Origin: Candidatus Latescibacterota bacterium
GTDB lineage: Bacteria > Latescibacterota > UBA2968 > UBA8231
Length of the DNA: 64,000 nucleotides
Direction of reading: 5' to 3'
NCBI GenBank assembly: GCA_965217585.1
Contig: OZ244561.1
Coordinates: forward strand, 4,224,001-4,288,000
The notes under the pieces are model-generated. The model had not been told where the DNA came from and ran no database searches. It saw only the letters and a program-made list of their open reading frames with translations. Positions 5,571 to 51,365 of the stretch are shown in pieces. The position numbers and the translations under genes are program-made. Every line of letters begins with the position of its first letter. The stretch's first letter is position 1.

Positions 5571-5591
5571 AGAGCTAATAGGATGAGCAAA

Positions 5592-7196
5592 TTAGTGCTG
5601 CTGCGCTGATTCAATCTTACTGGTCAGGTTTCTAAGTCCCTCCTCGATAGCCCTGCGATCCTCGGGCAGCAAAAAATCGACCATCCGGAAGAGGAATACC
5701 ATCCCTTTGCGCTCCGCAAAGTTTCTGCGTTGAGTCGCTTCGAATTGGGAAACATCCTCTATTTGTCGGCCCATGAGTTCGGCGACGTATCGACGCAATA
5801 CCGCCGGCGGTTCGCGGTAGGGCATCTTGCGCAGGAAGAGTATCAGGTCGTTGCGGTAGAAGACGCGGTCCCACAGCGAATAACCGAGTTGGCGGGCATA
5901 GGCTTCATAGTTTTTCAGCCTACCCGTATCGCCCACTCCCCAGTTTGCACCGACAGCACTCTGCGCCAGATCCTCGACCATGGAGCGGGCGATTAGGTAA
6001 TGCCCATACACAGTTGGATGCAAGTACTCAGCGATCAATTCGTTCCCGACAATGCCGTGCGGCGAGTTGGCGGCAAAGGCTTTTTCCACATCGCTCAACA
6101 GGATCTGGCCCTCGGCCGCGCCGGCCAGCTTGCGGATGATCTGATTGAATACCGTGGGGGCGCGAAAAGGTAGCCTGTCCATGTCTCGGGCGTAGACAAA
6201 GGCCTTGTGGGCCTTGCTGTGCGCCCTGCGCCTATAGTGCAGTCGGCCCAATTCAAAGTGGATGCCGGCGCAATAGGGGTCCTCATCGAGTGCTTCCTCG
6301 CAGACGGCTATGGCTTCCTGCAGTCGGCCTTGGCGTACTAGGCCGTCCAGCTCTCGCGATAAATCCCCGCCGTCGCAGTCCGAGCGCAGCGGATAGAAGT
6401 CCTTTAGATTGGCAACCAGAGTCGAAAGCAGCACCGGAGTCCCGTGCTGACGGGCCTGCAGCAGTATTTCCCCTAGATTGTCCCGGTAGTTTTCCGCAGT
6501 GACTTGGTGTTCCTCATCGAGCAGGCCAATTTCCCTGCCGACCAGATGGAGTCCGAACTTCTCCTCTGCGGGGCTCCACCACTTTTGCAGACGGTAGATC
6601 GCCTCGCTGAGAAAGTAGTAGATTCTGGAGCGCTGCAACTCCATGTAGAGCCGGATCCAGGTCCGATTGTTGCCGAATTTGCGGAAGGGAGTGGTGACCC
6701 CGTAAGGGCCGACAAATTCGTTGTGCCCCGCGTAGAGGATGATCAAGTCCGGCTCATACCCGATGATTTCGGCCGCGAAGTCCAGCAGACAGAAGGTATT
6801 GATGGCGGTCATGCCGCAGTTGATGACCTCGAAGTGTCTGTCCGGATAGACCTCGGCCAGCATTGCTGCGAGAAAATGCGGAAAAGCCGTATTGGGCGGG
6901 TTGGGAAAACCGAGCAGAGTAGAGGCCCCTAGGACAAAAATGCGCACCGTGTCAGGTGGTTTTTTTTGTGGGAAACTCGGATCGTAAGGTACGGGACGCC
7001 GGTACTGCTGTTGAAAGAAACGGTGGCCGACGTGCGGGTTGACCTCGTATACGACCTCGCCATCCCGGTGGAACGCCAGAAAAAGCCGACTGGAAGGGCC
7101 TGCATCCACTAGGTAGAGGGCAACTTCGAGCAGTACTAGAGCCCCCATCCCCAGCAGAACCGCCAGAAGATTTAGGAAAAGCGATTTCTTCAGCAT
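5592..7196 (-). CDS. Membrane-anchored SGNH/GDSL-like hydrolase with TPR segment
   Basis: N-terminal TM helix; blocks VLGAST, EVINCG, YAGHNEF, EYLHPTVYGH; TPR-like IHFELGRLHY. Confidence 0.8.
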   Translation of the reverse strand: MLKKSLFLNLLAVLLGMGALVLLEVALYLVDAGPSSRLFLAFHRDGEVVYEVNPHVGHRFFQQQYRRPVPYDPSFPQKKPPDTVRIFVLGASTLLGFPNPPNTAFPHFLAAMLAEVYPDRHFEVINCGMTAINTFCLLDFAAEIIGYEPDLIILYAGHNEFVGPYGVTTPFRKFGNNRTWIRLYMELQRSRIYYFLSEAIYRLQKWWSPAEEKFGLHLVGREIGLLDEEHQVTAENYRDNLGEILLQARQHGTPVLLSTLVANLKDFYPLRSDCDGGDLSRELDGLVRQGRLQEAIAVCEEALDEDPYCAGIHFELGRLHYRRRAHSKAHKAFVYARDMDRLPFRAPTVFNQIIRKLAGAAEGQILLSDVEKAFAANSPHGIVGNELIAEYLHPTVYGHYLIARSMVEDLAQSAVGANWGVGDTGRLKNYEAYARQLGYSLWDRVFYRNDLILFLRKMPYREPPAVLRRYVAELMGRQIEDVSQFEATQRRNFAERKGMVFLFRMVDFLLPEDRRAIEEGLRNLTSKIESAQQH

Positions 7197-7221
7197 CGAT
7201 GCGCCAACGCCAACCAGCTAC

Positions 7222-10200
7222 CTAATACACCACGGCAATCACCCGATAGTCCACCGTGTGAGTAGCCTCCACCGCGTCCGCATCCACCGCGATCTTGCAC
7301 AGATAGAGACCAGGCGGAACTACCTTCTGCGCCTCGTCCCAGCCCTCCCACACCACGCTCTGTTCGCCAAACCCCATCTGGACTTTGTGCCAGACTCGAC
7401 GGCCGCTGAGGTCGAAAATCTCGACCCGTATTTCGCGATCTGCATTGAGGTTGCCCAGGGAGAAGCGGATCTGCATCTGATCGTTGACGCCGTCGGCGTT
7501 GGGGGTAAAGGGATTGGGAGAGATCACCACATCCCGCACCACCCGGGCGTTGATCGGTACGGCGATACTCATAGTGCTTCCCTCTCTTAGAGAGGTCGCA
7601 TCCCCGGCATCCACCTGCTGCCATATTGCCGGCCCACCGGCATCGCGGATTGATGCGTCGATCGTGCTTCCATTCAATATCACCTTGGCCTTAAAACGGA
7701 CCCGGACCAGTTCCCCTGCAGCTACAATCGATCCTTTTTCGTCCGTTGGCAACGCGTTGTACGCGGCCTGGGACAGCGGCTGCCCTGCCCGGTCAAAGGG
7801 AAATTCTCCACCCCTGCCGATCAACTTGCGAAAATAGAGAATCTCCCCTTTCAGAGAATCCTCCAGACTCTTGTACTGAAAATTGGTGACTTCTTCCTCG
7901 ATAAACGTGCCATCCGGGTTCTTACCGACAACCTGGAAGTAGACCGTGCGCCCCTGCTGCTCTGAAGGCAGGCTCAAATAAGTGAGCTGGTTCAACGGGC
8001 GACCGTCCTCATCCACGGGGACTTCTTCCCCCTCTTCCAAGATGAGCCGATTGTAGAACCGCGATTTCTCCGCTTGGGGCAACAGACCGACCTTGTGCGG
8101 CAGACGCATCAGCAGTTTGGATCCGGCCGCATCGGCATCCCCGGCGGCGATTCCTCCCTGGAAGACTTTGAGCGTATCGCCGGAGGCGGGATCAATCAAG
8201 ACCTGAAAACGCTCTCCGGCGTCCTCGAACCAGTAGTCCTGCTCTCCCGCGACCAGACGCGACCCGAGTTCGGTGAAATTCTGTCCAGTGTCATTTTGCA
8301 AGTCCTCCTCCGGCCCTATGCTCACATCTAGGAGTTTGATCGCCCGAATGGGATCGGCATCAATGAGGATCTCGTCGAAGCGCCGACTCCCCTGACCATC
8401 GGGCTCGCGCTCTACAAAGGTGGGATTGAGATAGACCTCAAAATCCTGCAGCGTGCCCAGAGATACCTCGTTGGGCCAGATTTCGCCGGTCGCTCGGCGG
8501 GCTACCGGCGGGAGAAAATGCACCCGTACAGAGCGGATACTAGCGACCATGTCGGGCACCCGGGAAACCATCTTCACCTGAATCTGCAAAAACCGCCTCG
8601 GGCTGGGAGAAGTGATGGGCTCGCCTGACTCGATGTATTTCTGACTCCAGGGGCTCCATCCACCTCCCGGTATCCTGCTGGTGACCATAGGGCCTTGGAA
8701 CTTGGCGGGCAATTTATTGTAGTCCGCTTCGGTCTTGGAATCGCCGCCGCTGCCGTAGTATTCGGTTATCTCTATCAAACGGTCTCCGGTGCGGGTGCGG
8801 ATCTCCACATCGACCAGATCGGGATCGGGGATATCGGCTTCCCACTCTATCTTGCCCAGGACGAACACGCCCGGCAATTCGATCAGGGGCGAAGTCAGAA
8901 CAACCTCCGGGGGATACCCCTCGCCAAAGACCTGCACTTCCCTGAACCCGTCCGCGAGGATCCCACTTCCCGCGGCGCGCTGGAAATCTACCGTGGACCG
9001 GGACCACAAGTAGCGTACCCGCATGGGACGCTCCAAGAGTTGTTCGTAATTTACCCGGGTCACGCCTTTCTCGCTCCGGTCTATTTGCATCCACTTCAGA
9101 TTGCCATTGGTATCTCTGCTTCCGTCCGAGACGCGGGTCAAGTACTCATGGCGGCTAGAAATACTTCCCACCCAGCGCAATTGATCGATCCAGAAGACGG
9201 CTCCCAGATCTACGATGAGTGTACCTCTATCCTCAAAGCGGGGGTCTGGTTGCCAGACCTCCTGCCTAAAATGGGTGTCGTAGATCCCGTCAAATCCCTC
9301 TGCCGCCGTCAATGGCCCGAGCAGGTCAACACTGCCGCCGCCCTCGATAATGCCTAGGGCGATATTGTTCCCTTGGGACCACACCTCGATATCCGCTAGG
9401 CGGGGGCGCTCCCGCTGGTAGGAGGCCAGTCGGCTCTGGCGATCGGCGGGAACCTGATCGAAGACCGCCTTGTCCACCTTAGTCTCTTTGCCAACTGCAT
9501 TCACAATGAAGTAATCGATGCCCCCCTGGTCCCCCAGAGGCAGGTCTATATATTCTCGCTCGGAGATTTCCTTGAACTTGTCGAATTTGCTGTCCGTGAT
9601 CTGAATGCGTAGCCGGTGTACTAGCAGGTAATTCCTACTCGGATCGTTTGCAATCAAATTGTCGAATTCGACTACTCGCCGATCCTCGTTAGGTGTCACC
9701 GTGCGCGCGGTCAAGCTCAAAGTGGCGTCCCGCTTTTGCGAAGGCGTGGTGAGGATGCGGAACTGGCGGAAGGGCTCGCCCACCTCTTCGTCCACAAAGC
9801 GCAGCACGATCTTCGAGACCGGCACCACCCGGCCCAACTCCACATCCACGTACCACTTTTCTAGGGAGCGGCTGTTATACTGGATCCGCCGCCCACTGGT
9901 GCTGGTCTGCTCGTAGGTATTCCGGCCCACGCGACGCTCCTGGCCGGCCGCGTCTTTGGCGAAATAATAAATGGACCCCTGTTCACCCAGAGGCAGGGCA
10001 TGGTACTCTTCCTCGCTCACCTCGGTGCTCGGCTCCCAATAGGTACTCGGATCGCCGTCGAGGATATTGGCGGCCATTTCCGAGCGGTAGGGCACCTCCC
10101 TAATGCCTCCCTGGTAGAAGTACCAAATCACGGGATCGCCTACTTCTATGCCTTTCTTGGCGTCCGCTTTCAAGTGCAAAATTGGGGACCCGGCTACATG

Positions 10201-10575
10201 GGCCGGACCCGTGACTATGTTGAGCGGCAGCGAGGCACCCTCTCGCTTGAGGGTCTTGACCAGTTTATCATATGCCTTCTGGTCGCCGATCCTGATGCGG
10301 AACCGCTCCATATCTTCTATGACGTTGATGTTTTTGCTAATGCGGCGCGGCGCGGCCGTGTGGGTCACGGGATCTATTGCCACTGCGTGCTCGGGCCGCC
10401 CCCACACTTCCCATTGCTCGGCCCTGTCCACCACGATTCCTTCCGCGGACATGCTGTAGCCCTGCTCGGGCGTCTGCGCCCGACTCCGATCCGTCCAACA
10501 GGCCAAAAGGCACAGCGAGAACACAGCGAGCAAGTAGACCTGCTCCAATCGGGAGGTACTTTTGCAATGAGCCAT
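7222..10575 (-). CDS. Large secreted protein (about 1117 aa) with C-terminal FlgD-Ig/CHU_C-type domain
   Basis: RBS AAGAGGAG before ATG 10575; signal peptide; discoidin-like DGDPSTYW; IRTRTG..WSPWS..SPSPRRFLQ; SPNPFTPNADGVND..IFDLSGRRV..WEGWDE..PPGLY..AVVY. Confidence 0.85.
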   Translation of the reverse strand: MAHCKSTSRLEQVYLLAVFSLCLLACWTDRSRAQTPEQGYSMSAEGIVVDRAEQWEVWGRPEHAVAIDPVTHTAAPRRISKNINVIEDMERFRIRIGDQKAYDKLVKTLKREGASLPLNIVTGPAHVAGSPILHLKADAKKGIEVGDPVIWYFYQGGIREVPYRSEMAANILDGDPSTYWEPSTEVSEEEYHALPLGEQGSIYYFAKDAAGQERRVGRNTYEQTSTSGRRIQYNSRSLEKWYVDVELGRVVPVSKIVLRFVDEEVGEPFRQFRILTTPSQKRDATLSLTARTVTPNEDRRVVEFDNLIANDPSRNYLLVHRLRIQITDSKFDKFKEISEREYIDLPLGDQGGIDYFIVNAVGKETKVDKAVFDQVPADRQSRLASYQRERPRLADIEVWSQGNNIALGIIEGGGSVDLLGPLTAAEGFDGIYDTHFRQEVWQPDPRFEDRGTLIVDLGAVFWIDQLRWVGSISSRHEYLTRVSDGSRDTNGNLKWMQIDRSEKGVTRVNYEQLLERPMRVRYLWSRSTVDFQRAAGSGILADGFREVQVFGEGYPPEVVLTSPLIELPGVFVLGKIEWEADIPDPDLVDVEIRTRTGDRLIEITEYYGSGGDSKTEADYNKLPAKFQGPMVTSRIPGGGWSPWSQKYIESGEPITSPSPRRFLQIQVKMVSRVPDMVASIRSVRVHFLPPVARRATGEIWPNEVSLGTLQDFEVYLNPTFVEREPDGQGSRRFDEILIDADPIRAIKLLDVSIGPEEDLQNDTGQNFTELGSRLVAGEQDYWFEDAGERFQVLIDPASGDTLKVFQGGIAAGDADAAGSKLLMRLPHKVGLLPQAEKSRFYNRLILEEGEEVPVDEDGRPLNQLTYLSLPSEQQGRTVYFQVVGKNPDGTFIEEEVTNFQYKSLEDSLKGEILYFRKLIGRGGEFPFDRAGQPLSQAAYNALPTDEKGSIVAAGELVRVRFKAKVILNGSTIDASIRDAGGPAIWQQVDAGDATSLREGSTMSIAVPINARVVRDVVISPNPFTPNADGVNDQMQIRFSLGNLNADREIRVEIFDLSGRRVWHKVQMGFGEQSVVWEGWDEAQKVVPPGLYLCKIAVDADAVEATHTVDYRVIAVVY

Positions 10576-10696
10576 TTCTGATATCTCCTCTTTCCAGAGT
10601 GAGTAGGCCGACTTTGCCATTTGCCATAAATAATAAAGGGCTGGGGCACAACTCAAATCGAGTTCCTCCCTCCCTCATAGGACTATGGGATTGGCA

Positions 10697-12688
10697 TCAA
10701 AAATATCCCGACATGTAATTGTACCCTCCGGGAATTTTGGTGAAATAGCTGACTGCCAGCCAGAAACCAGCGGTGACGAACTGTCCCAAGATCAACCCTA
10801 AAAAAAAGGGGCGCGTCTTCAAATACAATTGGGGACCGCCGTACTTAATCACCACCATCTTGATCAGCCATGCCAGCAAGACGCTGAAAAACACGGTGCC
10901 GAAGAGCAGGCTGACCGGAAAACCGAGCGGGTGAAAAGGCCACCACAAGAAGCGCTGGCGCGCTACCATCAGCAGCCCCATGATGGTGCCCCCAATGCCC
11001 GTGTAGATCCAGTTTTCCCAGTGCGGCCCTTCGGGAACTTGCATGCGAAAAGCGGCATTTTCAAATGGATAGCGCGAACCCACGCCAAAAAACCACCCGT
11101 CTGTATTGATGCCGCCGTATTTATACGCTATGGCCAGCATGGCCCACACCGAGCTGGCGATAGCCACTAGGATGGCTACGACCATGCCCCAGAAAATCAA
11201 ACGCCGATTCCGCCTAATCGTCTCCTCGGCCAGCTTTAGACCATTGGCGCAGGAGGCCATCACAAAGGTGAGAATGTCGCTGGCCCAGATGAATGTGAAC
11301 GCCATCGCCACAATCCCCGAAGGGCCCAACGCCCGCGTCCCAAAGCCGGCCACCACGAAGTCCGAGGCCGTCATTGGGGCAAAAATGTAAACTATCCCCC
11401 CTTCAGCTACGATGCGCGTTAGACCGATGAAGAGAATGAAGGCCAGAAAAAGATAAAAGGGCGTGATCCAGGCCGGCATCCCCGACTGCCAAATCCACAC
11501 TCCCATAAAGAGCAGACTGCCGCCCAGCACTAGGACTGCTGCCCGGTAGGAGAGTATCTCGTCGCTGTCGTCGACGGCGGAGTTTTTCTGCAGCGCTTTG
11601 CTCAAGACGGCGCGCAAATGCCCTCGGGCGGTCCACAGGCCAAAGAGGACCAAGACGATGAAGGCACCCAGCCCCTGGTGGGCGACCATGGGGCCGCCGC
11701 GGGTGTAGACACTGAGCAGCGGATCGATTTTCTGGATCCCCAGATAGGCGAAGATGCCTTGCTGGATGACATTGAGCAGATGGAAGAAGCACAGGCCGAA
11801 GAGGATATCTCGGTTGACAAAATAGGAAAAGCCCAGCATCTGGAAGCTCAGAATGAACGGGATAGTGATGGTATCGCCGAAAAGGGAAAGTTGCGTGCCC
11901 CAATAGAGGCGAGGGATGGAGGGGAAATAGGGGTTGAGCCCGTTGAGGCTCTGGAGAATGGCCGGTATGGCAAAACCCAGCCACATCAGCGGATTTTTGA
12001 AAAACGGCTTGATCAGCGAGGGCCCGGTGGCGTCGTCCTGGATCATAGCAAGGGGCACCTGGACCACGGGAAAGACGAGGCGCTCGTGCTCGACCCACTG
12101 CTTGCGCAAGATCACCATAATGGAGATCATGGCCAAGTAGAGGGCTAGGACGAAGGGAATCCAGTAGGCCAGGGGCCGCAGCCACAGCATCCAGGGAATG
12201 CCTTGGCCTTTGGGCGCTCCTTCAAAAAAATTCTGTACCTGGGCGAAGTCGTGGTGGGGAATGATCCAGTCCGGGATGAAGGGGTGCAGCAATTCGGCCC
12301 AGTTGTTCTCGGGCGTAGCGTTGTAGATCGGACTGGTGATATCCGTCAGCAGAAAGCTGGTCAGGCCCCACTCGGGGATGGCGGTGGCCACGATCCACAT
12401 GATGTAGATCAGGGCGAGTTCGGCGCGATTGAGCATCCACGAGCGGCGGATCAGGCCCAGCGCGGTATTGCCAAAGAAAACCAGAACGAAGAACAGGATG
12501 AGGGCCGCAGGGGTATTGAAATACGAAGCGATGCGGGAGCCCTGCAGCACCATATTGCAGTAGAGAACACCGGCACCGATCGCCCCGGACCCCACGGCAC
12601 CGATGAGGAGCGCGCGAAAACCGGGAGCTTCAAAGGGGATTTTAGCCAAAGCAGATTTCCTGCACTTGGAATGTTTCGACTCTGGCAA
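10697..12688 (-). CDS. DUF6785/DUF6784 polytopic membrane protein (OPT-like transporter candidate)
   Basis: Many TM segments; QWVEHERLVFP, FFKNPLMWLGF, WWPFHPLGFP, KYGG..RPFFLGLILG; paralog of 51366-53336. TTG start is uncertain. Confidence 0.8.
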   Translation of the reverse strand: MPESKHSKCRKSALAKIPFEAPGFRALLIGAVGSGAIGAGVLYCNMVLQGSRIASYFNTPAALILFFVLVFFGNTALGLIRRSWMLNRAELALIYIMWIVATAIPEWGLTSFLLTDITSPIYNATPENNWAELLHPFIPDWIIPHHDFAQVQNFFEGAPKGQGIPWMLWLRPLAYWIPFVLALYLAMISIMVILRKQWVEHERLVFPVVQVPLAMIQDDATGPSLIKPFFKNPLMWLGFAIPAILQSLNGLNPYFPSIPRLYWGTQLSLFGDTITIPFILSFQMLGFSYFVNRDILFGLCFFHLLNVIQQGIFAYLGIQKIDPLLSVYTRGGPMVAHQGLGAFIVLVLFGLWTARGHLRAVLSKALQKNSAVDDSDEILSYRAAVLVLGGSLLFMGVWIWQSGMPAWITPFYLFLAFILFIGLTRIVAEGGIVYIFAPMTASDFVVAGFGTRALGPSGIVAMAFTFIWASDILTFVMASCANGLKLAEETIRRNRRLIFWGMVVAILVAIASSVWAMLAIAYKYGGINTDGWFFGVGSRYPFENAAFRMQVPEGPHWENWIYTGIGGTIMGLLMVARQRFLWWPFHPLGFPVSLLFGTVFFSVLLAWLIKMVVIKYGGPQLYLKTRPFFLGLILGQFVTAGFWLAVSYFTKIPGGYNYMSGYF

Positions 12689-12699
12689 TTTTTATCTGC

Positions 12700-14409: not shown

Positions 14410-14657
14410 TTTCTCTATTTAAGGTGGCCCAGGACAGTAAACGACAGACTTGGATGTAGGAAATGATCGGGGATTGGGGGCCGTCAGCCGGAAAATCGAA
14501 AACCCACTTGGCTTGCTGCAATATATCTGGCAAAACTACCTGATGCAAGCTCGCTTGAATTTTCGCTTTTGCCGGAACTTGTATGCATTAATAGTTCGGA
14601 CACTTTTTGCACTTTTGGCCCAATTTGGCAAAAATAATATTTTCATAAATTATCAAA

Positions 14658-14670
14658 AATAAATAAGTTG
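14658..14670 (+). promoter_or_regulatory. Possible IHF-binding site
   Basis: AATAAATAAGTTG has one mismatch to WATCAANNNNTTR and lies in an AT-rich divergent intergenic region. Confidence 0.3.
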
Positions 14671-14709
14671 TATTTATCTTGTCTATCTTTTGCTCTTCTT
14701 GTTTTTTGC

Positions 14710-14738
14710 TTGACCCAGACTGTTGAATTGAGTATTTA
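14710..14738 (+). promoter_or_regulatory. Putative sigma70-type promoter for the 14871 gene
   Basis: TTGACC-N17-TATTTA with an AT-rich upstream tract. Confidence 0.5.
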
Positions 14739-14778
14739 TACAAACACATAAATTCAAAATACTCCTGAAATCACCATA

Positions 14779-14823
14779 GCCCTGTTGTCAAACTCGAGAA
14801 AGGAGGTGGATTTAGACAAGGGC
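14779..14823 (+). promoter_or_regulatory. Leader hairpin with AAGGAGGTG exposed in its loop
   Basis: GCCC(TG)TTGTCAAA(C)TC pairs with GATTT(A)GACAAGGGC around loop GAGAAAGGAGGTG. Confidence 0.45.
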
Positions 14824-14870
14824 AAGCACCACCAGAACTGTCTCTTTATTTTCTAGCTAAGGAGGAATAT

Positions 14871-15755
14871 ATGCGAAGGGTATGGACATCGGTTGTTCTC
14901 CTGACCCTGTGCATGGCAGTTGGGGCATGGGGGCACGCGTGGAACAATTCGTTATTCTTCGCCGTTCAGTTCCCGGACGAGAATGTTCCGGTGGTGGACG
15001 GCAACCTCGCCGATTGGGCTGTGGTACCCGACGTACCCTATCTGATCGGCAGCGAGGTGCTGGCCGACTCGTATTACGCCAATAATGAACAGGGCGAAAT
15101 CGATGTCAGCGATATGGCCATCCGCTCGTTTTGGGGCTGGAACGACAACAACGACCGGCTCTACGCCATGGCCGAAGTCTTCGACGATAAACATATTACG
15201 GATCGCTCTGCCCCAGACGAGTGGTGGGCCGACGATGCGTGGGAGATCTACATCGATGTGGCCCACCTCGATATCGAAGAGCAGAGATGGGAGGACGGTA
15301 CCAGGCAGTCTTGGAACGTATCCGTCCCCATAGCCGCCGATAACCTGGGTCAGATGCTCCCGGCACATGCCTGGCGCACAGATCCAGACACCAGCCCCTA
15401 CTGGGGTTTCGGCTGGAGTTTCGAGGGCGAGGAATACGGCGAGAGCACCTACTTTTACGAGATCTGGATGCAGCCCTTCGAGTTTATCGCGGAGGACGGC
15501 AATCTAGATAATTCACCTCTCGCACCACTCGAAGTAGACCAACTCATTCACATGAGCATGGCCTTCGACGATGACGATGACGGAGGCACCGAGCGCACGA
15601 ACTTTTGGACTACTACAGATGGTGGGTGCTGTAAGGCCGATAGCGATATGATTCTAAACGAACTGGATGATAGCATTGACTGGGGCTCCCAGGAGGTCAC
15701 AGCCGTGCAGGCCGATTCTTGGGGTCGCATCAAGTCCCAGTTTATTACCCAGTAG
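14871..15755 (+). CDS. Secreted acidic CBM9/DOMON-like protein with C-terminal TAVxxxSWGRIK tail
   Basis: RBS AAGGAGGA; signal peptide ending AWG|H; PVVDGNLADW, WGWNDNNDRLY..VFDD, DDAWEIYID, TYFYEIW; ends VTAVQADSWGRIKSQFITQ. Confidence 0.75.
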   Translation: MRRVWTSVVLLTLCMAVGAWGHAWNNSLFFAVQFPDENVPVVDGNLADWAVVPDVPYLIGSEVLADSYYANNEQGEIDVSDMAIRSFWGWNDNNDRLYAMAEVFDDKHITDRSAPDEWWADDAWEIYIDVAHLDIEEQRWEDGTRQSWNVSVPIAADNLGQMLPAHAWRTDPDTSPYWGFGWSFEGEEYGESTYFYEIWMQPFEFIAEDGNLDNSPLAPLEVDQLIHMSMAFDDDDDGGTERTNFWTTTDGGCCKADSDMILNELDDSIDWGSQEVTAVQADSWGRIKSQFITQ

Positions 15756-15818
15756 CCGTAGAGTCATATCATGCGTCGCCCGTGTGGCGACTTCACTTTG
15801 CAGTTTGCTTCATTCCAC

Positions 15819-15853
15819 GGGCGGTGGGCGCTTCAATCCACCGTCCTTTTTTT
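15819..15853 (+). terminator. Intrinsic terminator after the CBM9-like gene
   Basis: GGGCGGTGG-loop-CCACCGTCC followed by T7. Confidence 0.75.
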
Positions 15854-15946
15854 ATCGTTCCACAGGAGGTCTATCCGCTTTGACCGGGGGCGTGCATTTT
15901 CTTGCACTGCGCCATTTTACCACCGCCCTCCGCGGAGGAAATACCC

Positions 15947-18679: not shown

Positions 18680-18689
18680 CTCGGCTTAG

Positions 18690-20924: not shown

Positions 20925-20932
20925 GTGCACTA

Positions 20933-23698
20933 TTAATAGACCACCGCTACGGGCCTTATCTGCTCGCTGTCCTTGGCGTCTCCCTCGACCACAACCCGCA
21001 ATAGATAGATCCCTGGAGGCACCAGATTTCCGGCCGCATCCCTCCCATTCCATCCGAGGCCGGGAATAACACTCTGATCATAGTGGCCGCTCAACCCCTC
21101 GCTGTCGTGGAGCGCGAATACCAGTTGGCCCGAAAGGTCGAAGAGGTGCAGGCTGATTTTAGCTTCGCGGGTAATGGTCAGGACATCGTACTCAATGCTC
21201 AGAATATCGTTGATTCCATCATCGTTGGGCGTAAAGGGATTGGGAGATACCCTTAGAGAGCCGATGAGCTCTCCTCGGGCGATGGCCGGACTCAACACCG
21301 TGATGCCCGAAGCCGTCGGCAGATCTCCTTCCCCTAATAGCGTTGCATTTCCAGGGGTAATTCGCTGTATGGCGCCTTCCTGGGTTGACAGGATGGCCTG
21401 CCCCGCGACCACAGTGCTGTAGAGCAGCACCTTGCTGCGGAAGAATATCTTCAGCAGTCTCTCTCCACCTTCGGCTGGTCTGGCAATGTGGGGAAATTTT
21501 ACCGTGAAGTTGCGCTCCGCCACCTCCGCAATCGCAAAGGTATCGCCGGCGGCAGCTACCGAATAGGGCAGGACGTGTATACTGCCGTCCTCGAGTTGCA
21601 CGACAGAATTTCCCTCGCTATCGAGGGCGATATCCGCATTCAGGTCCCGTTCGGCTAGGACTGAACCAACTTCGTCTACAATCTGGATTTTGTCGATGCC
21701 CAGAACCTGGGTGGGAGTTTCAATCTGGAAGGCATCAAACCCCGCCACCCCCTCGATGTCCATCAGCGCTTTCACCGCATAGGTGAACTGCACCGTCTCA
21801 AAGGCTTCTACTTCGCGCGGATAAATTTCGGCGATCAGGTCGTCAGCCAGCGGCGGTGCCAGGTACTCGATAGTCAATTGCTCTATCATTTTGGTGGCGT
21901 CTATGCGGCTGTTCTGGAACTCTAGCGAGAACTGGATGTAGCGCCGCGGACCGGGCGAGAGAATTGACGTGCCTCCAGGTGCATCCCCGCCGCTATAAGG
22001 TGCCGACCAAGGGCTCCAGTTTTGTAGGTCTTCCTCAACCGCCCACTGGACCCACGGGTCCTCCAGTTTTAGGTATTCCTCGCGGCCGAGTGGTTCGTTG
22101 GGGTTTTTCAGTGAAGTCGCCTGTTCGGGATCGGCGAGCCGCTGGATATTTCTGCGCTTATAGACAATGGGGGTGGGATCGCTCCCCGTCCGGGTGCGAA
22201 TGAGGATATCGGTGGCGACTCGACGACCCGGCGGGGCGACGCGTTCGGTCCAACTGATATTGCCCCAGGTGGCGACCTCCCCTAGATCGAAGACGGGAGA
22301 AATGTAGGAACTGGCGGCGACAAATCCTTGTCCGTAGACCTCCAATTCGTCTATCTCATAGGGGAAGGACGAGGTGGATTTAATGCGCACGTAGCGCACC
22401 AAGCGGGCCGGCTTCACCTCTATATCGAGTACGGGCTCCTCATTTTCCGCGCTCCTCAACAGGGGCACATAGTCGTTGGTGCGGGGCGAAAACCTGCCAA
22501 AACTGTCGCGCACCAAGTTGCGGCCGTCGTGCAGCAAAAGCTCGAATTGTCGGAGAAAATCGTTCTGGAAAGGGAATTGCGGGGCGTTCTGGACCGTATT
22601 GCGCGGATAGAAGCGGATCCTATTGATGCCAATGGGAGTGCCCAAATCGAGCACGATGAAAGTACCCAGTATCGGCTGGTCCCCTTTGCGTTCAAAGGCG
22701 TCTTCTGATCCACCCGGCTCAATCAATTCTAGCAGAATAGGTGCCAGGGCGGTCGTGGAAAGATCTTTGACCGACGGCGCTGTAATTTCGCCGTTGAACT
22801 CGAGGGCTCTTTGAGCCACGTTTTCACCTAGGGCAATGTGAACCGGGCTCAGCGCCACCGGCAACACCACGGGATTCTTGGTCCCGGGAGGCAGCCGTTG
22901 CCCCTCGTCTTCGTCCTGCAAGCTTTTTGCCGCTGGGCGGGCGACCAACTTGCCCCGCTGTCTTCCTGGTCTCTGTGTCTGCTCCCCTGTTTCCTTGTTT
23001 TTACAGATCACCTTATAACAGTCTGCAAGCGTCTTTTGCTCCGCGCCCACCTGCTGGAAGTAAGTCTCGCACTCTCCCCAATCTTCCGGGATGAGACCGG
23101 TTCCCTGGGCGACATGGGCACCGGAAATCTGCAATTCGAAGGTCTTCGCTTCCTCGGCACAACTGAGGTCGCCTCCTTCCTCCTCGGCAAAGCCGTCCCT
23201 GGTCTCTCCCTCCGGCCGGATCGGGTCCAGGGCCTCGCCGACCTGCTGCATGCGTTCTGCGAGATCGTCCCCGACCTGGAATCCGATTAACACGGTGGAC
23301 AGGTTGCCTTGGACGCTGGTCTCCAAGCTGGCGATCCCGCTGAGCGGAGAGGTCGCCTCTATCAGCATCTGGTTGACTAGGTCCATTTGCTCTGCGAGGA
23401 GTTCGGGCTCAACATCAACCACGGTCTTGATCTGAACGGAGGGAACGACGTCGTCCAAGATCGACAGATCGATCAGATTGCCAGGGGCACTGCCCACCTC
23501 GGTCGACTTCAGTCCCACTATGTGTTCGGCGGGAAAAGTGGTTATATTCCCCCCCAAGGTCGTGCCCCCCCAAGAGACATTGCCGTTGACGCCGACCCGC
23601 AAGAACTCCACCGCCCTAGCCTCGTCTGTCCACATGGGACCTAAAACTCCAATGGTGAAAAACGCGGATAGAAGCTGATACAGTGGATGGCGCACCAT
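20933..23698 (-). CDS. Secreted FlgD-Ig/CHU_C-terminated paralog (921 aa) with N-terminal insertion
   Basis: RBS GGAGG; signal peptide; LDLG..INRIRFYPR, IRTRTG, WSPWSAPY, SPGPRRYIQ, AEIYP, SPNPFTPNDDGIND..PPGIY..AVVY. Confidence 0.85.
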   Translation of the reverse strand: MVRHPLYQLLSAFFTIGVLGPMWTDEARAVEFLRVGVNGNVSWGGTTLGGNITTFPAEHIVGLKSTEVGSAPGNLIDLSILDDVVPSVQIKTVVDVEPELLAEQMDLVNQMLIEATSPLSGIASLETSVQGNLSTVLIGFQVGDDLAERMQQVGEALDPIRPEGETRDGFAEEEGGDLSCAEEAKTFELQISGAHVAQGTGLIPEDWGECETYFQQVGAEQKTLADCYKVICKNKETGEQTQRPGRQRGKLVARPAAKSLQDEDEGQRLPPGTKNPVVLPVALSPVHIALGENVAQRALEFNGEITAPSVKDLSTTALAPILLELIEPGGSEDAFERKGDQPILGTFIVLDLGTPIGINRIRFYPRNTVQNAPQFPFQNDFLRQFELLLHDGRNLVRDSFGRFSPRTNDYVPLLRSAENEEPVLDIEVKPARLVRYVRIKSTSSFPYEIDELEVYGQGFVAASSYISPVFDLGEVATWGNISWTERVAPPGRRVATDILIRTRTGSDPTPIVYKRRNIQRLADPEQATSLKNPNEPLGREEYLKLEDPWVQWAVEEDLQNWSPWSAPYSGGDAPGGTSILSPGPRRYIQFSLEFQNSRIDATKMIEQLTIEYLAPPLADDLIAEIYPREVEAFETVQFTYAVKALMDIEGVAGFDAFQIETPTQVLGIDKIQIVDEVGSVLAERDLNADIALDSEGNSVVQLEDGSIHVLPYSVAAAGDTFAIAEVAERNFTVKFPHIARPAEGGERLLKIFFRSKVLLYSTVVAGQAILSTQEGAIQRITPGNATLLGEGDLPTASGITVLSPAIARGELIGSLRVSPNPFTPNDDGINDILSIEYDVLTITREAKISLHLFDLSGQLVFALHDSEGLSGHYDQSVIPGLGWNGRDAAGNLVPPGIYLLRVVVEGDAKDSEQIRPVAVVY

Positions 23699-23859
23699 AA
23701 GAAGTCCTCCGCCGTCGAAAGAAAATCTTCCCGTAGTCCCGTAGTATAGTAAAATTCCGCGCCCATTAAAAATTTCATTCTCACCGCATCTTTGACTAAA
23801 TTAGGGCTGCCAGAATTGGAACCAACGCCGCGTTTTAATTTCTGAGGAGGGCACAGGGG

Positions 23860-25992
23860 ATGTCGATCCGTTATGCGTCTCTACTTCTCACCTTTCTGGT
23901 TCTCCTATGCGCCAGGACCAACGCCTTCAATGTGTATCACCTAGGCGGCACCGACGGCCATCCGTGGCAGACGGCCCTGTCCTACGAGCCAGGGGACTAT
24001 CTGGTGCTCAAACCCGATGGCACGGCCGACCAGCGTCTGCCCCTCGCGGCTCCCTCCGCCCATCCGACTTGGGAGGACACTCTAGCTGATCGCATAGACA
24101 GTTTGGGCGGGCAATGGCTGCGACCCTTCTTCCTCCCCGATACCCTCAACCTAGCCCAAGATGGGATCCGGGAACGCTACGATAACGACTTCTTTGTCGA
24201 CGGCAACCTGTTTACCAGCGGTGCGAGCTACGATGTGGAATCTCAGACGAGGCTGATGCGTCCGGCGGTCGATGGCGATCCGCAGACGGCTTCTTTCTAC
24301 ACGGCTTCGGCTTCGAGCGATCCGACCATTCGCCGGGGCATCTACATTCAGAACAATATTGTAGATCTGGGGGTAAACTATCCGGTCAATCGCATCCGCT
24401 TCTTTCCCCGTCTGGGCACCAGCAATCCCAATATCGATGCGATTCTCGCGGCGATGGCCCCTCCCAAGCTGCACAAAGAGGATCTGCTGGAGGAGGATTT
24501 CTCCGCCAATTTCATGCCTTGGTTCGAAGTGGCCGCCGCCAACAGCGACCAGAATCTGGGGCCTTTCACTGGTGGATGGCTGCGAGGAATCATCCCCGGC
24601 ATCCCCAACGCCAAAAGTGATTCGCGCTTCACCGTCCTCTTCACTGACCGAGAGAATCTGGACGTGCTGGTGGATTTTCGCTTTCCCACCCAGCAGTTGC
24701 GCTGGATTGCCTACCGCGTCCTCGACCCCATCCGCAACTACGAAATTGCCGAATTTCAAGTGTTCGGCTCGGGCTATATCCAACGCGCGGTCTACACCAC
24801 GGCCGTATTGGACTTCGGCCAGCCCATGGCCTGGGGCAACATCCGCTGGAAGGGAACACGCGATCCTCAGGCCAAACTCCTCATCCGCACCCGCACCGGC
24901 CACGACGACGAGCCGCTGCTCTACTGGCAGAAAACCAGTATCCCCGGCGAGTTCAAGCAAGTCACCCGCAAGGAATACGATATCACCCTCAAACGCGAAC
25001 GACGCCTTACTCTCGACGAACAAAACTGGAGTTTCTGGTCGGCACCTTATGCTTGGCCGGCTGGGTTGGCCGATACCACCTTGGAGGCTGCAGCCTGGCA
25101 GGATGGCACGCCTATTCTGTCGCCGGGTCCGGCGCGCTACCTGCAACTGCAACTGCTTTTTCTCTCCACCCAGACGGATGCGGCCAAACTGCGGGAGTTG
25201 GAAATCCAGTTTTCGCCTCCGGCTGCCCTGCGCGCCGTCGGTGAGATCTGGCCGTTGGATGTGTCCCGTACCCACAGTACCGCCTTCACCTATAGTGTCC
25301 TACCCACCTTTGATCGCGACACCCAGGGTTTTGACCGACTGGAGATTTTTACCCTGACTCGGGCTGACACTGTGCGCTCGGTGCGCGTCGATGGGGCGGA
25401 GGTGAGCGATCAGTTTCCACCCCAAATCCAAAAGGACCGGATTCTGGTCGCCCTACCTCGGTTGCAAGGGGGGGACGACACCTTCAAGCTAGTCGAAATC
25501 GAGTTCGACGCGCGCGTGGTGCGCTACGGCACGGAATTCCAGGGCTGGATCTTCGACAGCGAGGGCACGGGGGTCAAACAGTTGATTGAGCCGGGCGATG
25601 CCACGGTGGATTTTCCCGGCAATGCGCTGGGGGTGCGTCCGACCGGGCTGGGCGATGCGTTGCTGACACAGGTGTCGGTCTTTCCCAATCCGTTCACGCC
25701 CAACGGCGATGGTCTCAACGATGTGGCTCGCTTTCAGTTTCAACTCCACGAGGTATCTGCCCCGCGCGATTTGCGGCTGCGGGTGTATGATGTGTCGGGT
25801 CGGCTGGTGCGTCAGTTGGATCGTCAGTTGGCCATTCGGGGTCTGTTTGGCGAGGGGGTTGAGGATCCGGTCTGGGATGGTCTGGATGAGGGCGGTGGTT
25901 TGGTTGCGCCGGGGATTTACCTCTACCGGATTTCGCTGGACACAGACGAGGGAGCAAGAGAAAAGCTAGGCACTATCTCGGTCGTCTATTGA
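23860..25992 (+). CDS. Secreted FlgD-Ig/CHU_C-terminated paralog, tandem copy A (710 aa)
   Basis: RBS GAGGAGG; signal peptide; DLG..VNRIRFFPR, IRTRTG, WSFWSAPY, SPGPARYLQ, FPNPFTPNGDGLND..APGIY..SVVY. Confidence 0.88.
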   Translation: MSIRYASLLLTFLVLLCARTNAFNVYHLGGTDGHPWQTALSYEPGDYLVLKPDGTADQRLPLAAPSAHPTWEDTLADRIDSLGGQWLRPFFLPDTLNLAQDGIRERYDNDFFVDGNLFTSGASYDVESQTRLMRPAVDGDPQTASFYTASASSDPTIRRGIYIQNNIVDLGVNYPVNRIRFFPRLGTSNPNIDAILAAMAPPKLHKEDLLEEDFSANFMPWFEVAAANSDQNLGPFTGGWLRGIIPGIPNAKSDSRFTVLFTDRENLDVLVDFRFPTQQLRWIAYRVLDPIRNYEIAEFQVFGSGYIQRAVYTTAVLDFGQPMAWGNIRWKGTRDPQAKLLIRTRTGHDDEPLLYWQKTSIPGEFKQVTRKEYDITLKRERRLTLDEQNWSFWSAPYAWPAGLADTTLEAAAWQDGTPILSPGPARYLQLQLLFLSTQTDAAKLRELEIQFSPPAALRAVGEIWPLDVSRTHSTAFTYSVLPTFDRDTQGFDRLEIFTLTRADTVRSVRVDGAEVSDQFPPQIQKDRILVALPRLQGGDDTFKLVEIEFDARVVRYGTEFQGWIFDSEGTGVKQLIEPGDATVDFPGNALGVRPTGLGDALLTQVSVFPNPFTPNGDGLNDVARFQFQLHEVSAPRDLRLRVYDVSGRLVRQLDRQLAIRGLFGEGVEDPVWDGLDEGGGLVAPGIYLYRISLDTDEGAREKLGTISVVY

Positions 25993-26015
25993 CTCAATTG
26001 AGAGGAAAACAGGAT

Positions 26016-28148
26016 ATGTCGGCCCGTTATGCGCCTCTACTTCTCACCTTTCTAATTCTCCTATGTGCCAAGACCAGTGCCTTCAATGTGTATCATCTGG
26101 GCGGCACAGACGGCAATCAGTGGCAGACAGCCCTGTCCTACGAGCCAGGGGAGTATCAGGTCCTCAACCCCGATGGCACTGCCAGCCAGCGCCTCCCCCT
26201 CATAGCCCCCTCCACCCACCCGACCTGGGAGGACACTCTGGCCGATCGCATAGACAGTGTGGGCGGGCAATGGCTGCGGCCCTTCTTCGTCCCCGATACC
26301 CTCAACCTAGCCCAGGATGGGATCCGGGAACGCTACAGAAATGACTTCTTTGTCGACGGCAACCTGTTTACCAGCGGCCCGAGCTACGAAGTGAGTGCCC
26401 AGACGGGGCTGATGAGACCGGCGGTCGACGGCGACCCGCAGACGGCCTCTTTCTACACCGCCTCAGCCACGAGCGATCCGACCATTCGCAGGGGCATCTA
26501 CATCCAGAACAATGTCGTAGATCTGGGGGTAAACTATCCGGTCAATCGCATCCGCTTTTTTCCCCGTCTGGGCACCAGCAATCCCAGAATCGACGAGATT
26601 CTCGAGGACATGGCCCCTCCCAAGCTACGCAAAGAGGACCTGCTGGAGGAGGATTTCTCCGTCAATTTCATGCCTTGGTTCGAACTGGCCGCCGCCAACA
26701 GCGACCAGACTCTGGTGTCGGACGCTGGGGCGTATCTGCGAGGAATCATCCCCGGCGTCCCCAACGCCAAGAGTGATTCGCGCTTCACCGTCCTCTTCGC
26801 CGACCGGGAGAATCTGGACGTGGTCATGGATTTTCGCTTTCCCACCCAGCAGTTGCGCTGGATTTCCTATCGCGTCCTCGACCCCATCCGCAACTACGAA
26901 ATTGCCGAATTTCAAGTATTCGGCTCGGGCTATATCCAACGAGCGGTCTACACTACTGCAGTACTAGACTTCGGCCAGCCCATGGCCTGGGGCAACATCC
27001 GCTGGAAAGGAGAACGCGACCCCCAGGCCCAACTCCTCATCCGCACCCGCACCGGCCACGACGACGAGCCGCTGCTCTACTGGCAGAAAACCAGTATACC
27101 CGGCGAGTTCAAGAAAATCACCCGCAAGGAATACAATATCACCCTCAAACGCGAACGACGCCTCACCCTCGACGAACAAAACTGGAGCTTCTGGTCGGCT
27201 CCTTATGCTTGGCACGCCGGCTTGGCCGATTCCACCCTGGAGGCCGCCGCTTGGCGGGATGGCACCCCCATCCTGTCGCCGGGGCCGGCGCGCTACCTGC
27301 AACTGCAGCTCCTCTTCCTCTCCACCCAGACGGATGCGGCCAAGCTGCGGGAATTGGAAATCCAGTTTTCGCCTCCGGCTGCCCTGCGCGCCGTCGGTGA
27401 GATCTGGCCGTTGGACGTGTCCCGCACCCACAGCACCGCCTTCACCTACAGTATTCTGCCCACCTTTGATCGCGACACCCAAGGTTTTGACCAGCTAGAG
27501 ATTTTCACCCTGACTCGGGCCGACACCGTGCGCTCGGTACGCGTTGATGGGGTGGAAGTGCGCGACCAGTTCCCACCCGAAATCCAAGCGGACCGGATTC
27601 TGGTCGGCCTGCCCCGGCTGCAAGGGAGCGACGACACCTTCAAGCTGGTCGAAGTCGAGTTCGACGCGCGCGTGGTGCGCTACGGCACGGAATTCCAGGG
27701 CTGGATCTTCGACAGCGAGGGCACGGGGGTCAAACAGTTGATTGAGCCGGGCGATGCCACGGTGGATTTTCCCGGCAATGCGCTGGGGGTGCGTTCTGCC
27801 GGGCTGGGCGATGAGTTGCTGACTCGGGTGTCGATCTTTCCCAATCCGTTCACGCCCAACGGCGATGGTCTCAACGATGTAGCTCGCTTTCAGTTTCAAC
27901 TCCACGAGGTATCCGCCCCACGCGACTTGCGGCTGCGTCTGTATGATGTGTCGGGTCGGCTGGTGCGGCAGTTGGATCGTCAGTTGGCCATTCGGGGTCT
28001 GTTTGGCGAGGGGGTCGAGGATCCGGTCTGGGATGGTCTGGATGAGGGCGGTGGTTTGGTTGCGCCCGGGATTTACCTCTATCGGATTTCGCTGGACACA
28101 GACGAGGGAAGAAAGGAAAAGGTAGGCACTATCTCGGTCGCCTATTAG
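26016..28148 (+). CDS. Secreted FlgD-Ig/CHU_C-terminated paralog, tandem copy B (710 aa)
   Basis: Colinear with copy A at offset 2156 nt and identical in length; ATG 26016 after GAGGA. Confidence 0.88.
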   Translation: MSARYAPLLLTFLILLCAKTSAFNVYHLGGTDGNQWQTALSYEPGEYQVLNPDGTASQRLPLIAPSTHPTWEDTLADRIDSVGGQWLRPFFVPDTLNLAQDGIRERYRNDFFVDGNLFTSGPSYEVSAQTGLMRPAVDGDPQTASFYTASATSDPTIRRGIYIQNNVVDLGVNYPVNRIRFFPRLGTSNPRIDEILEDMAPPKLRKEDLLEEDFSVNFMPWFELAAANSDQTLVSDAGAYLRGIIPGVPNAKSDSRFTVLFADRENLDVVMDFRFPTQQLRWISYRVLDPIRNYEIAEFQVFGSGYIQRAVYTTAVLDFGQPMAWGNIRWKGERDPQAQLLIRTRTGHDDEPLLYWQKTSIPGEFKKITRKEYNITLKRERRLTLDEQNWSFWSAPYAWHAGLADSTLEAAAWRDGTPILSPGPARYLQLQLLFLSTQTDAAKLRELEIQFSPPAALRAVGEIWPLDVSRTHSTAFTYSILPTFDRDTQGFDQLEIFTLTRADTVRSVRVDGVEVRDQFPPEIQADRILVGLPRLQGSDDTFKLVEVEFDARVVRYGTEFQGWIFDSEGTGVKQLIEPGDATVDFPGNALGVRSAGLGDELLTRVSIFPNPFTPNGDGLNDVARFQFQLHEVSAPRDLRLRLYDVSGRLVRQLDRQLAIRGLFGEGVEDPVWDGLDEGGGLVAPGIYLYRISLDTDEGRKEKVGTISVAY

Positions 28149-39932: not shown

Positions 39933-39946
39933 GTGCCCGCCACGAA

Positions 39947-44083: not shown

Positions 44084-44084
44084 G

Positions 44085-46505: not shown

Positions 46506-46518
46506 TCGCTAGCCTCCC

Positions 46519-51348: not shown

Positions 51349-51365
51349 AATTGTAAGTGCCTTTC

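Follow-up and report, generated by a model that had tools for sequence, protein, structure and literature searches.

A multi-copy gene cassette of Latescibacterota encoding a predicted outer-membrane beta-barrel and three classes of CHU_C-tailed surface proteins

The locus and its principal products

The 64-kb stretch of Candidatus Latescibacterota DNA analysed here (contig OZ244561.1, positions 4,224,001 to 4,288,000; hereafter the window) contains at 5592..28148 a locus of ten genes in 22.5 kb, which encodes a predicted outer-membrane beta-barrel of 910 amino acids (aa), four related surface proteins with CHU_C-type C-terminal domains, and a set of chaperone-like, enzyme-like and membrane companions (Table 1). 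The locus represents one copy of a self-contained cassette that is typical for Latescibacterota. A first-pass annotation, made from the letters alone, had described two gene arms diverging from an AT-rich spacer, and all ten genes and the spacer are present. The left arm runs on the minus strand throughout, as described; the right arm does not hold together, because its 921-aa paralog is encoded on the minus strand, in convergent orientation to the glycosyltransferase gene, and the arm is therefore not one transcription unit. Pfam and NCBIfam scans of the ten locus proteins and of 27 other open reading frames (ORFs) of at least 150 aa in the window gave no match to the TonB receptor, SusD, PorP/SprF or Por/Gld families, in agreement with the earlier statement that the window holds no SusC/TonB receptor or Por/Gld gene.

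Table 1. Genes and other features of the cassette in the window
Feature	Position	Strand	Details
SGNH-like/TPR protein, 534 aa	5592..7196	-	Lipase_GDSL_2 29.6 bits (below the cut-off of 32.9); TPR_19 26.9 bits
Class A surface-protein paralog, 1144 aa	7222..10656	-	CHU_C 36.9 bits; ends VVY
DUF6785+DUF6784 polytopic inner-membrane protein, 663 aa	10697..12688	-	Pfam 419.9 and 93.7 bits
PpiC-type (parvulin) periplasmic protein, 569 aa	12700..14409	-	Rotamase_2 63.5 bits, Rotamase 38.2 bits
AT-rich divergent intergenic spacer, 461 bp	14410..14870		GC 38.6%, against 58.8% for the window
CBM9/DOMON-like secreted protein, 294 aa	14871..15755	+	CBM9_1 20 bits (below the cut-off of 23.4)
Terminator-like hairpin between the CBM9-like and barrel genes	15819..15846	+	10-bp stem with 7 G-C pairs, then a T run
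Predicted outer-membrane beta-barrel, 910 aa	15947..18679	+	signal peptide; no Pfam/NCBIfam family
GT-C glycosyltransferase, PMT_2/GT39-like, with TPR, 744 aa	18690..20924	+	PMT_2 48.1 bits
Class B surface-protein paralog, 921 aa	20933..23698	-	CHU_C 32.7 bits; ends VVY
Class C surface-protein paralog, 710 aa	23860..25992	+	CHU_C 31.3 bits; all-beta, multidomain
Second class C paralog, 719 aa, tandem duplicate	25989..28148	+	CHU_C 31.7 bits; 90% identical to the 710-aa paralog

The 910-aa protein has no match in Pfam at E up to 10, Plug, TonB_dep_Rec and DUF6029 included, nor in NCBIfam, and searches of the PDB with the single sequence and with a profile returned nothing usable. An AlphaFold 2 (AF2) model built on 58 diverse relatives reaches a mean predicted local distance difference test score (pLDDT) of 82.6 and a predicted template-modelling score (pTM) of 0.81. 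Outside an insert, it has 23 long strands over residues 143-907, in addition to four short N-terminal strands. The insert, a beta-rich domain of surface-loop type at about 246-405, interrupts the barrel strands, and an Asp/Asn-rich stretch at about 496-631 is without regular structure and carries the most conserved motifs of the family. Counted from the C-terminus by the usual alternation of short turns and long loops, both inserts would face outwards. The matches listed by Foldseek against the PDB are all outer-membrane barrels—MtrB, Deinococcus SlpA, LptD, the ushers FimD and PapC, porins such as OmpG, and TonB-dependent transporters—with template-modelling scores (TM-scores) of 0.10-0.38. 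Since the scores are low and the matches barrel-type throughout, the fold class is clear and a close structural relative is lacking. Signal peptide, long strands and fold matches together point to a large outer-membrane beta-barrel with a predicted 24 or so strands. The first-pass annotation had staked its reading beforehand on this protein being a barrel, and the confident AF2 fold and the barrel-type matches listed did not refute it.

An exhaustive search at E up to 0.001 retrieved 731 cluster representatives of the barrel family. Every relative from a named source is labelled "hypothetical protein"; most come from bins of Candidatus Latescibacteria/Latescibacterota and some from bins labelled Gemmatimonadetes, while the members of one distant cluster are labelled Ignavibacteria and Bacteroidota. 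The nearest named Atlas cluster, DUF6029 'TonB-dependent receptor-like beta-barrel' (0.89), was taken as a lead only and was not confirmed by Pfam. Residues 28-98 or so, which follow the signal peptide, are conserved in close relatives (W-Y-x-P-Q-E-L-Y, W-R-Q-W-E-Y-S-N-Y-A-R) and modelled with pLDDT below 50; they might plug the barrel or act as a docking peptide towards a partner in the periplasm. When the class C tail (598-710) was modelled together with residues 28-910 of the barrel, the complex prediction scored 0.00, which speaks neither for nor against binding.

The four surface proteins share IRTRTG, WSxWS, SPxPxRxxQ, EI(W/Y)P and PNPFTPNxDGxND without exception, and their C-termini read VVY, VVY, VVY and VAY, so that all the common motifs and the terminal tyrosine reported at first are found in 4/4. 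The sharing reflects true paralogy and not chance, because BLASTP relates the proteins at E values from 2.5e-23 to 0: 2.5e-23 between the 1144-aa and 921-aa proteins and 3.2e-56 between the 921-aa and 710-aa proteins, with the two class C copies 90% identical. Their C-terminal domains all exceed the gathering score of 27 for Pfam CHU_C (PF13585), the model of type-B tails of the T9SS (type IX secretion system), while the same domains score 13.9-18.4 bits on FlgD_ig, below its cut-off of 27. The paralogs had been called FlgD-Ig proteins carrying a type-B signature; the signature stands, and the FlgD-Ig label gives way to CHU_C, which fits the domain better. A clear lipobox was not seen in the N-termini of the surface proteins when these were read by eye.

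The AF2 model of the 710-aa class C protein (pLDDT 83.2, pTM 0.70) is all-beta and multidomain. Foldseek matches it, among others, to PorU (through the C-terminal domain), to Ig-like stalks in PrgB, to galactose oxidase and C5a peptidase, to alpha-2-macroglobulin and complement C3, and to Eph ectodomains and an S-layer protein; no one catalytic fold turns up repeatedly. A class C profile searched against the PDB found FlgD, the Fn-type domain of C5a peptidase and the C-terminal domain of PorU, and weakly (E about 0.3) modules of the fucolectin/CBM32 type. The pair of R-T-R-T-G and W-S-x-W-S is reminiscent of the Trp-Arg ladder seen in cytokine-receptor and thrombospondin repeats, and W-x-x-W is the site of tryptophan C-mannosylation by GT-C enzymes in animals. 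The paralogs with near-invariant WSxWS share their cassette with the gene of a GT-C/TPR enzyme.

Recurrence of the cassette and its three surface-protein classes

Species-representative genomes were scanned for barrel relatives with a query alignment of 25 closer sequences and two patterns taken from the Asp/Asn-rich stretch. At least 633 stretches encode such relatives. The best 80 of these were resolved into 76 loci from 39 assemblies, 53 of them with full 10-kb flanks; all ORFs of the loci were translated and searched with the window proteins. By their titles, 29 assemblies belong to Latescibacteria/Latescibacterota and seven to Gemmatimonadetes/-ota/-aceae, the remainder being one Handelsmanbacteria, one Woeseia bin and one "uncultured bacterium". 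Some assemblies carry several loci: at least six lie on one chromosome, at least five each on another chromosome and in one draft assembly, and at least four in each of four assemblies.

CHU_C paralogs stand beside the barrel in all 53 full-flank loci, in three copies in 45, and the PpiC protein is present in 52. The CBM9-like protein follows with 43 loci, a strong GT-C/TPR relative with 42 and DUF6785 with 28; a second barrel gene occurs in 20. The expectation of the first-pass annotation that the gene set recurs as a unit is thus confirmed, foremost by the paralogs and the PpiC protein and by the several loci per genome. Paralogous cassettes within one genome have barrels of 45-56% identity and come in several gene orders. 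Because gene order differs between locus types, the cassette is not mere synteny of close relatives.

The surface proteins fall into three classes, assigned by best hit: A, resembling the 1144-aa protein (median 1023 aa); B, resembling the 921-aa protein (698 aa); and C, resembling the 710/719-aa pair (694 aa). One of each is present in 44 of the 53 full-flank loci. A maximum-likelihood tree of 203 paralogs separates the classes cleanly, with support of 1.0 for A, 0.993 for B and 0.855 for C, which places the origin of the trio before the multiplication of the cassettes. The window combines A and B with a tandem C pair, and two class C copies are found in 3/53 loci. All but one of the 203 paralogs end in tyrosine (69/69 in A, 70/70 in B), with the consensus hydrophobic-x-V-[AV]-Y. 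WSxWS is kept in 66/69 proteins of class A, 35/70 of class B and 62/64 of class C; for R[TS]R[TS]G the counts are 61/69, 56/70 and 55/64, respectively. Among class C relatives, 34/34 match CHU_C at E up to 0.001, and 30/34 match FlgD_ig as well.

The companions follow the barrel. For each protein, it was checked whether the locus with its best relative ranks in the top three by barrel similarity; this holds for A in 61/69 cases, B in 60/71, C in 51/63, PpiC in 53/60, the glycosyltransferase in 44/55, the CBM9-like protein in 45/60 and DUF6785 in 24/30, an agreement of 75-89% against about 4% expected by chance. We take it as a sign of stable modules and not of strict co-evolution, since orthologous loci of related species share everything. 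Between paralogous cassettes, the median identity to the window proteins is 51.5% for the barrel and 44.5% for DUF6785, and 32-38% for A, B, C, the CBM9-like protein, the glycosyltransferase and, above all, PpiC. A conserved barrel with diverged A, B and C proteins fits a constant channel with variable binders.

Companion proteins and neighbouring genes

The CBM9-like protein has a histidine directly after its signal peptide. This residue, preceded by small residues at -3 and -1 (the cleavage site was assigned by eye from the -3/-1 rule), is present in all 30 locus relatives. Of a database set of 103 relatives, 100 cover the position and every one of these has the histidine, after a median of 21 residues; 97/102 keep a second histidine and 102/103 a tyrosine, and several Asp/Glu residues are almost invariant. 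The two histidines of the window protein are His22 and His132. A mature N-terminal histidine with a second one defines the copper histidine brace of lytic polysaccharide monooxygenases (LPMOs) and CopC, according to the available text of PMC10952591 and PMC7529816. The family displays a sequence signature of this kind, and we regard the protein as a candidate histidine-brace (copper, LPMO-like) protein, a lead to be followed. By sequence it matches none of the LPMO or CopC families, and its one match is the weak one to CBM9_1: eight of 30 locus relatives match that family at E up to 0.01, some database relatives carry it as a precomputed domain, and a profile search of the PDB gave one xylanase chain at E 0.18. 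At the extreme C-terminus a SWGRIK-x-x-F motif is conserved, its W and K invariant in 30 aligned sequences. The hairpin downstream of the gene might give a higher dose of this small protein.

The PpiC protein has two parvulin domains, a signal sequence with LATC at its N-terminus and a SurA_N_3 score of 19.8 bits, below the cut-off of 27.2; it is probably periplasmic and SurA-like, and possibly a lipoprotein. The glycosyltransferase well exceeds the PMT_2 (PF13231) cut-off of 26.1 bits and has about ten hydrophobic segments, the features of a GT-C enzyme, followed by a long C-terminal domain matched by many TPR families. The DUF6785 protein exceeds the cut-offs of both DUF6785 (PF20581) and DUF6784 (PF20580) and has 12 hydrophobic segments, which make it a candidate inner-membrane permease; it has no match to OPT (PF03169), and no paper on DUF6785/DUF6784 was found among the open-access papers searched. 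The SGNH-like/TPR protein has one N-terminal hydrophobic segment, indicating a membrane anchor, and its relatives occur in 6/53 full-flank loci, only orthologous ones, which marks it as an accessory part. A GDSL protein of loci of the L051 type is unrelated to it.

In the orthologous loci L001-L008, a gene for a TMTC_DUF1736+TPR membrane protein (L001:6999-8783) occupies the position of the spacer, between the PpiC and CBM9-like genes; a remnant of it was looked for in the window spacer, and none was found. The spacer contains short TGGCAAAA-type repeats. Four promoter-like sites were counted in 5000-24999, two of them in the spacer, and because shuffled sequences give more (mean 8.8), the spacer sites have no statistical support. 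Terminator-like sites are not enriched in the region (23, against a shuffle mean of 19.6).

Neighbouring genes were surveyed by scanning 133 of the 207 unassigned ORFs from related loci. FG-GAP/UnbV_ASPIC proteins, often with TPR, lie in or beside many cassettes (for example L010, L012, L016, L049, L058 and L067). Also encoded in or beside related cassettes are a GDSL protein and membrane proteins that carry a spermine-synthase-like domain, in several cases along with TPR. Uptake genes are represented by ATP-binding cassette (ABC) binding proteins (SBP_bac_1/5) and permeases. On the catabolic side are five enolase-superfamily genes in tandem (L063, L076) and genes for amidohydrolases, a sulfatase, proteins of the phosphodiesterase family, GH2, GH42, PcRGLX-like lyases and an S15 peptidase. 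The scanned ORFs include one TonB receptor only and no match to PorP_SprF. Type A T9SS tails (Por_Secre_tail) are found near cassettes at L023:681-2633, together with PAD_porph (37 bits), and on a small protein at L011:3939-4544; from the sequence of these neighbours, a T9SS would seem to exist in related cassette-bearing genomes. The product of L023:681-2633 is a Porphyromonas-type peptidyl-arginine deiminase with a type A tail.

Outside the locus, at 51366-53336, the window contains another DUF6785+DUF6784 gene, with 48% identity to that of the cassette. It leads a separate row of genes on the minus strand (42131-53336), whose further members encode a protein of 1670 aa that combines M28 peptidase, MacB periplasmic core and FtsX permease domains, a polytopic 806-aa protein and a 330-aa protein, both without family, and a weakly PAP2-like protein. 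None of these companions at 42-53 kb recurs in the 76 related loci. The 806-aa and 330-aa proteins were compared with the barrel and the CBM9-like protein as possible counterparts and are unrelated to them. A 733-aa FG-GAP/UnbV_ASPIC protein is encoded far from the cassette, at 61248-63449. At 35274-42121, a 1552-aa nuclease-helicase (DUF4011/AAA_11/AAA_12/MTES_1575) adjoins a convergent RecD2-type helicase (39947-42121).

Candidate functions of the cassette

We tentatively read the cassette as a substrate-specific capture-and-uptake complex at the outer membrane, functionally similar to a polysaccharide utilisation locus (PUL) and built from other parts, and we put the chance of this a little short of even. 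The 910-aa barrel would be the membrane platform of the complex. The all-beta, lectin-like proteins of classes A, B and C, with their type-B-like T9SS C-terminal domains, would be exported through Sec and placed on the surface by the T9SS of the cell, where the cassette's own barrel would hold them, taking the role that PorP/SprF shuttles have in Bacteroidota. The His-first CBM9-like protein may attack or bind a polymer substrate, and the SurA-like parvulin and the GT-C/TPR enzyme may fold and glycosylate the parts in the periplasm. The barrel and the DUF6785 candidate permease could then carry the products inwards. The substrate specificity is suggested by the several diverged cassettes per genome and by flanks that often contain ABC uptake genes and catabolic enzymes; copy number, variable binders around a constant barrel, and catabolic and uptake neighbours favour capture and uptake.

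A number of observations weigh against this. The barrel lacks both a Plug domain and any recognisable energy coupling, the window's own locus encodes neither a glycoside hydrolase nor a peptidase, and the catabolic genes of related loci are irregular. No T9SS core gene was seen in the window or the related loci, whole genomes not having been searched, and on the NCBIfam type-B model TIGR04131 the four tails score 20.9, 22.3, 20.3 and 19.0 bits against a cut-off of 35. Contact between the barrel and the A, B and C proteins is something we infer. The window's CBM9-like protein stays below the cut-off of CBM9_1 (PF06452), and its histidine brace is read from the position of residues in the sequence. 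For the DUF6785 protein, PDB searches with the single sequence and a profile found nothing, and its Atlas look-alikes, 'peptide transporter'/OPT clusters at 0.77-0.79, give a weak lead. Equipping each cassette with a dedicated chaperone and glycosyltransferases would make equal sense for a structural surface coat.

The last point leads to the strongest alternative, which nevertheless strikes us as rather unlikely: that the cassettes serve surface display only, as adhesin or cell-coat modules in which ordinary T9SS type-B cargo, of the kind that SprB represents, sits on a cognate barrel and nothing is imported. The copies within a genome would then represent different adhesive specificities or surface variation, and glycosylation would provide stability. 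The available text of PMC10202324, PMC9143113 and PMC12618676 describes type B tails (PF13585/TIGR04131) as dependent on a PorP/SprF-family protein, usually encoded adjacently, which is thought to anchor the tails, these probably not being cleaved. Flavobacterium johnsoniae has 12 type B substrates, putative adhesins that are often linked to cognate PorP/SprF genes, as the accessible part of PMC12618676 reports. The chain of beta-sandwiches in class C, with its matches to Ig-like stalks of adhesins, to alpha-2-macroglobulin and to an S-layer protein, the S-layer-linked barrel SlpA among the top barrel matches, the chaperone and glycosyltransferases of each cassette and the lack of a catabolic enzyme in the window's locus would all suit display. 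It leaves unaccounted for the DUF6785 membrane proteins of 28/53 loci, the frequent ABC uptake genes and catabolic enzymes in the flanks, the conserved histidine-brace-like secreted protein of most cassettes, and a barrel about three times the size of PorP/SprF shuttles, more than an anchor needs.

Distinctly less probable is a self-contained export or assembly system, independent of the T9SS, in which the barrel itself is the translocon for A, B and C in the manner of an usher or a two-partner system, with the V-[AV]-Y terminus as recognition signal and the PpiC protein as periplasmic chaperone. The terminal Phi-x-Phi-x-Tyr, kept in 202/203 paralogs, is similar to the signal at the C-terminus of outer-membrane proteins; every cassette brings a fast-evolving parvulin chaperone of its own, and FimD/PapC ushers are among the fold matches of the barrel. 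No PorP/SprF gene lies near any cassette examined, and among the open-access papers searched we found none pairing Latescibacteria with a T9SS. Set against this, the tail matches a T9SS signal as modelled by Pfam, type A T9SS tails are found on genes beside cassettes in related genomes, and a T9SS is possibly present in other phyla of the Fibrobacterota-Chlorobiota-Bacteroidota (FCB) group, as reported in the available part of PMC11285876. The usher matches have TM-scores of 0.15-0.26 at full length and 0.35 for the translocation domain of FimD alone, and since one translocon usually serves many cargoes, many copies per genome would be odd.

We consider a divergent Sus-type, TonB-dependent polysaccharide utilisation locus very improbable. 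Many paralogous loci per genome, TonB-dependent transporters among the lower fold matches and the DUF6029 Atlas lead would speak for it, but it is contradicted on its defining features, as the barrel lacks a Pfam match to Plug, TonB_dep_Rec or DUF6029 at E up to 10, the locus has no SusD-like protein, and a single TonB receptor was found among the 133 scanned ORFs of related loci. To the idea of no system at all, with linkage only apparent and due to the synteny of close relatives, we give next to no credence: it suits the simple orthologous, syntenic loci L001-L009, and is contradicted by the same gene set in paralogous cassettes of one genome, with barrels at 45-56% identity and several gene orders, and by the 1:1:1 ratio of A, B and C in 44/53 loci.

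The first-pass annotation had proposed a modular PUL-like or secretion locus distinct from both Sus and the canonical T9SS. Its architecture stands, in the barrel and in the recurrence, and the choice of import over display is still a matter of inference. The distinction from Sus is upheld by the absence of a Plug/TonB receptor or SusD from the locus; that from the T9SS survives in part, as no PorP/SprF gene lies nearby, while the tails match the Pfam type-B model.

Among known systems, the T9SS type-B modules (SprB-SprF of F. johnsoniae, PG1035-PorP-PorE of Porphyromonas gingivalis) resemble the cassette in their PF13585 tails, adjacent barrel gene, several cargo/barrel modules per genome and beta-rich, adhesin-like cargo. 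The cassette differs in its barrel, which belongs to the 910-aa family without a PorP_SprF match, in three cargo classes per barrel at a fixed 1:1:1, in the near-invariant V-[AV]-Y, and in the added chaperone, GT-C/TPR enzyme and His-first protein. It also differs in its phylum, Latescibacterota, and in tails below the TIGR04131 cut-off; a review states that type B tails are restricted to Bacteroidota, in the available text of PMC10202324. The PULs and SusCD utilisomes of Bacteroidota likewise have many diverged copies per genome, a barrel with lectin-like beta-sandwich surface binders, and uptake and catabolic genes that in our case stand beside many cassettes. In contrast to them, the cassette has neither SusC, the TonB-dependent barrel with a Plug, nor SusD by Pfam or NCBIfam, and no regular regulator or set of carbohydrate-active enzymes, and its surface proteins carry secretion tails and come with their own chaperone and glycosyltransferase.

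Other likenesses concern single components. With the histidine-brace copper proteins (LPMOs of AA9-AA17, CopC) the CBM9-like family shares the predicted mature histidine (100/100), the second histidine (97/102) and a secreted, putatively beta-sandwich-type nature, but no sequence match. MtrB of MtrCAB, LptD-LptE, the FimD usher and Deinococcus SlpA are the best fold matches of the barrel and similar in size and strand number, but with TM-scores of 0.14-0.33 and no sequence similarity, and none has CHU_C-tailed partners. The glycosyltransferase resembles PMT/ArnT-like PMT_2 enzymes and the eukaryotic TMTC O-mannosyltransferases in its PMT_2 domain, its ten or so hydrophobic segments and its C-terminal TPR array, and a further enzyme, encoded in the orthologous loci, has a TMTC_DUF1736 match; TMTC enzymes glycosylate the beta-sandwich domains of cadherins. 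Taken as a whole, the cassette is an undescribed variation on a known theme, the pairing of tailed cargo with its cognate outer-membrane protein, to which it adds a new barrel family and several unexpected fixed parts.

A more specific form of the capture-and-uptake reading, which we hold to be doubtful, would make the cassette an undescribed TonB- and Sus-independent nutrient-acquisition machine of the outer membrane, composed of a novel barrel channel, three glycosylated, lectin-like subunits docked through V-[AV]-Y, and a new oxidative enzyme of the histidine-brace type. The barrel would then be both the docking or export partner and the uptake pore.

Latescibacterota are widespread, uncultured and thought to degrade polymers. 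For uptake across their outer membrane, a single-cell study of 2015 proposed only non-specific porins, judging from the available text of PMC4454575. The multi-copy cassette is a strong candidate for the missing outer-membrane uptake machinery of the phylum. It combines a barrel family found in neither of the curated libraries searched, Pfam and NCBIfam, with a fixed trio of tailed surface proteins. In it, type-B tails are found beyond Bacteroidota and in company with a barrel that is not of the PorP kind, a point of relevance to the recognition of these tails. The His-first protein could represent a new family of copper enzymes, and the locus-specific parvulin and TPR-bearing GT-C enzymes suggest a dedicated periplasmic maturation of surface proteins. 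If the TonB- and Sus-independent machine proves true, the type-B 'T9SS' tail would be an older and more general docking device than the literature on the Bacteroidota T9SS assumes.

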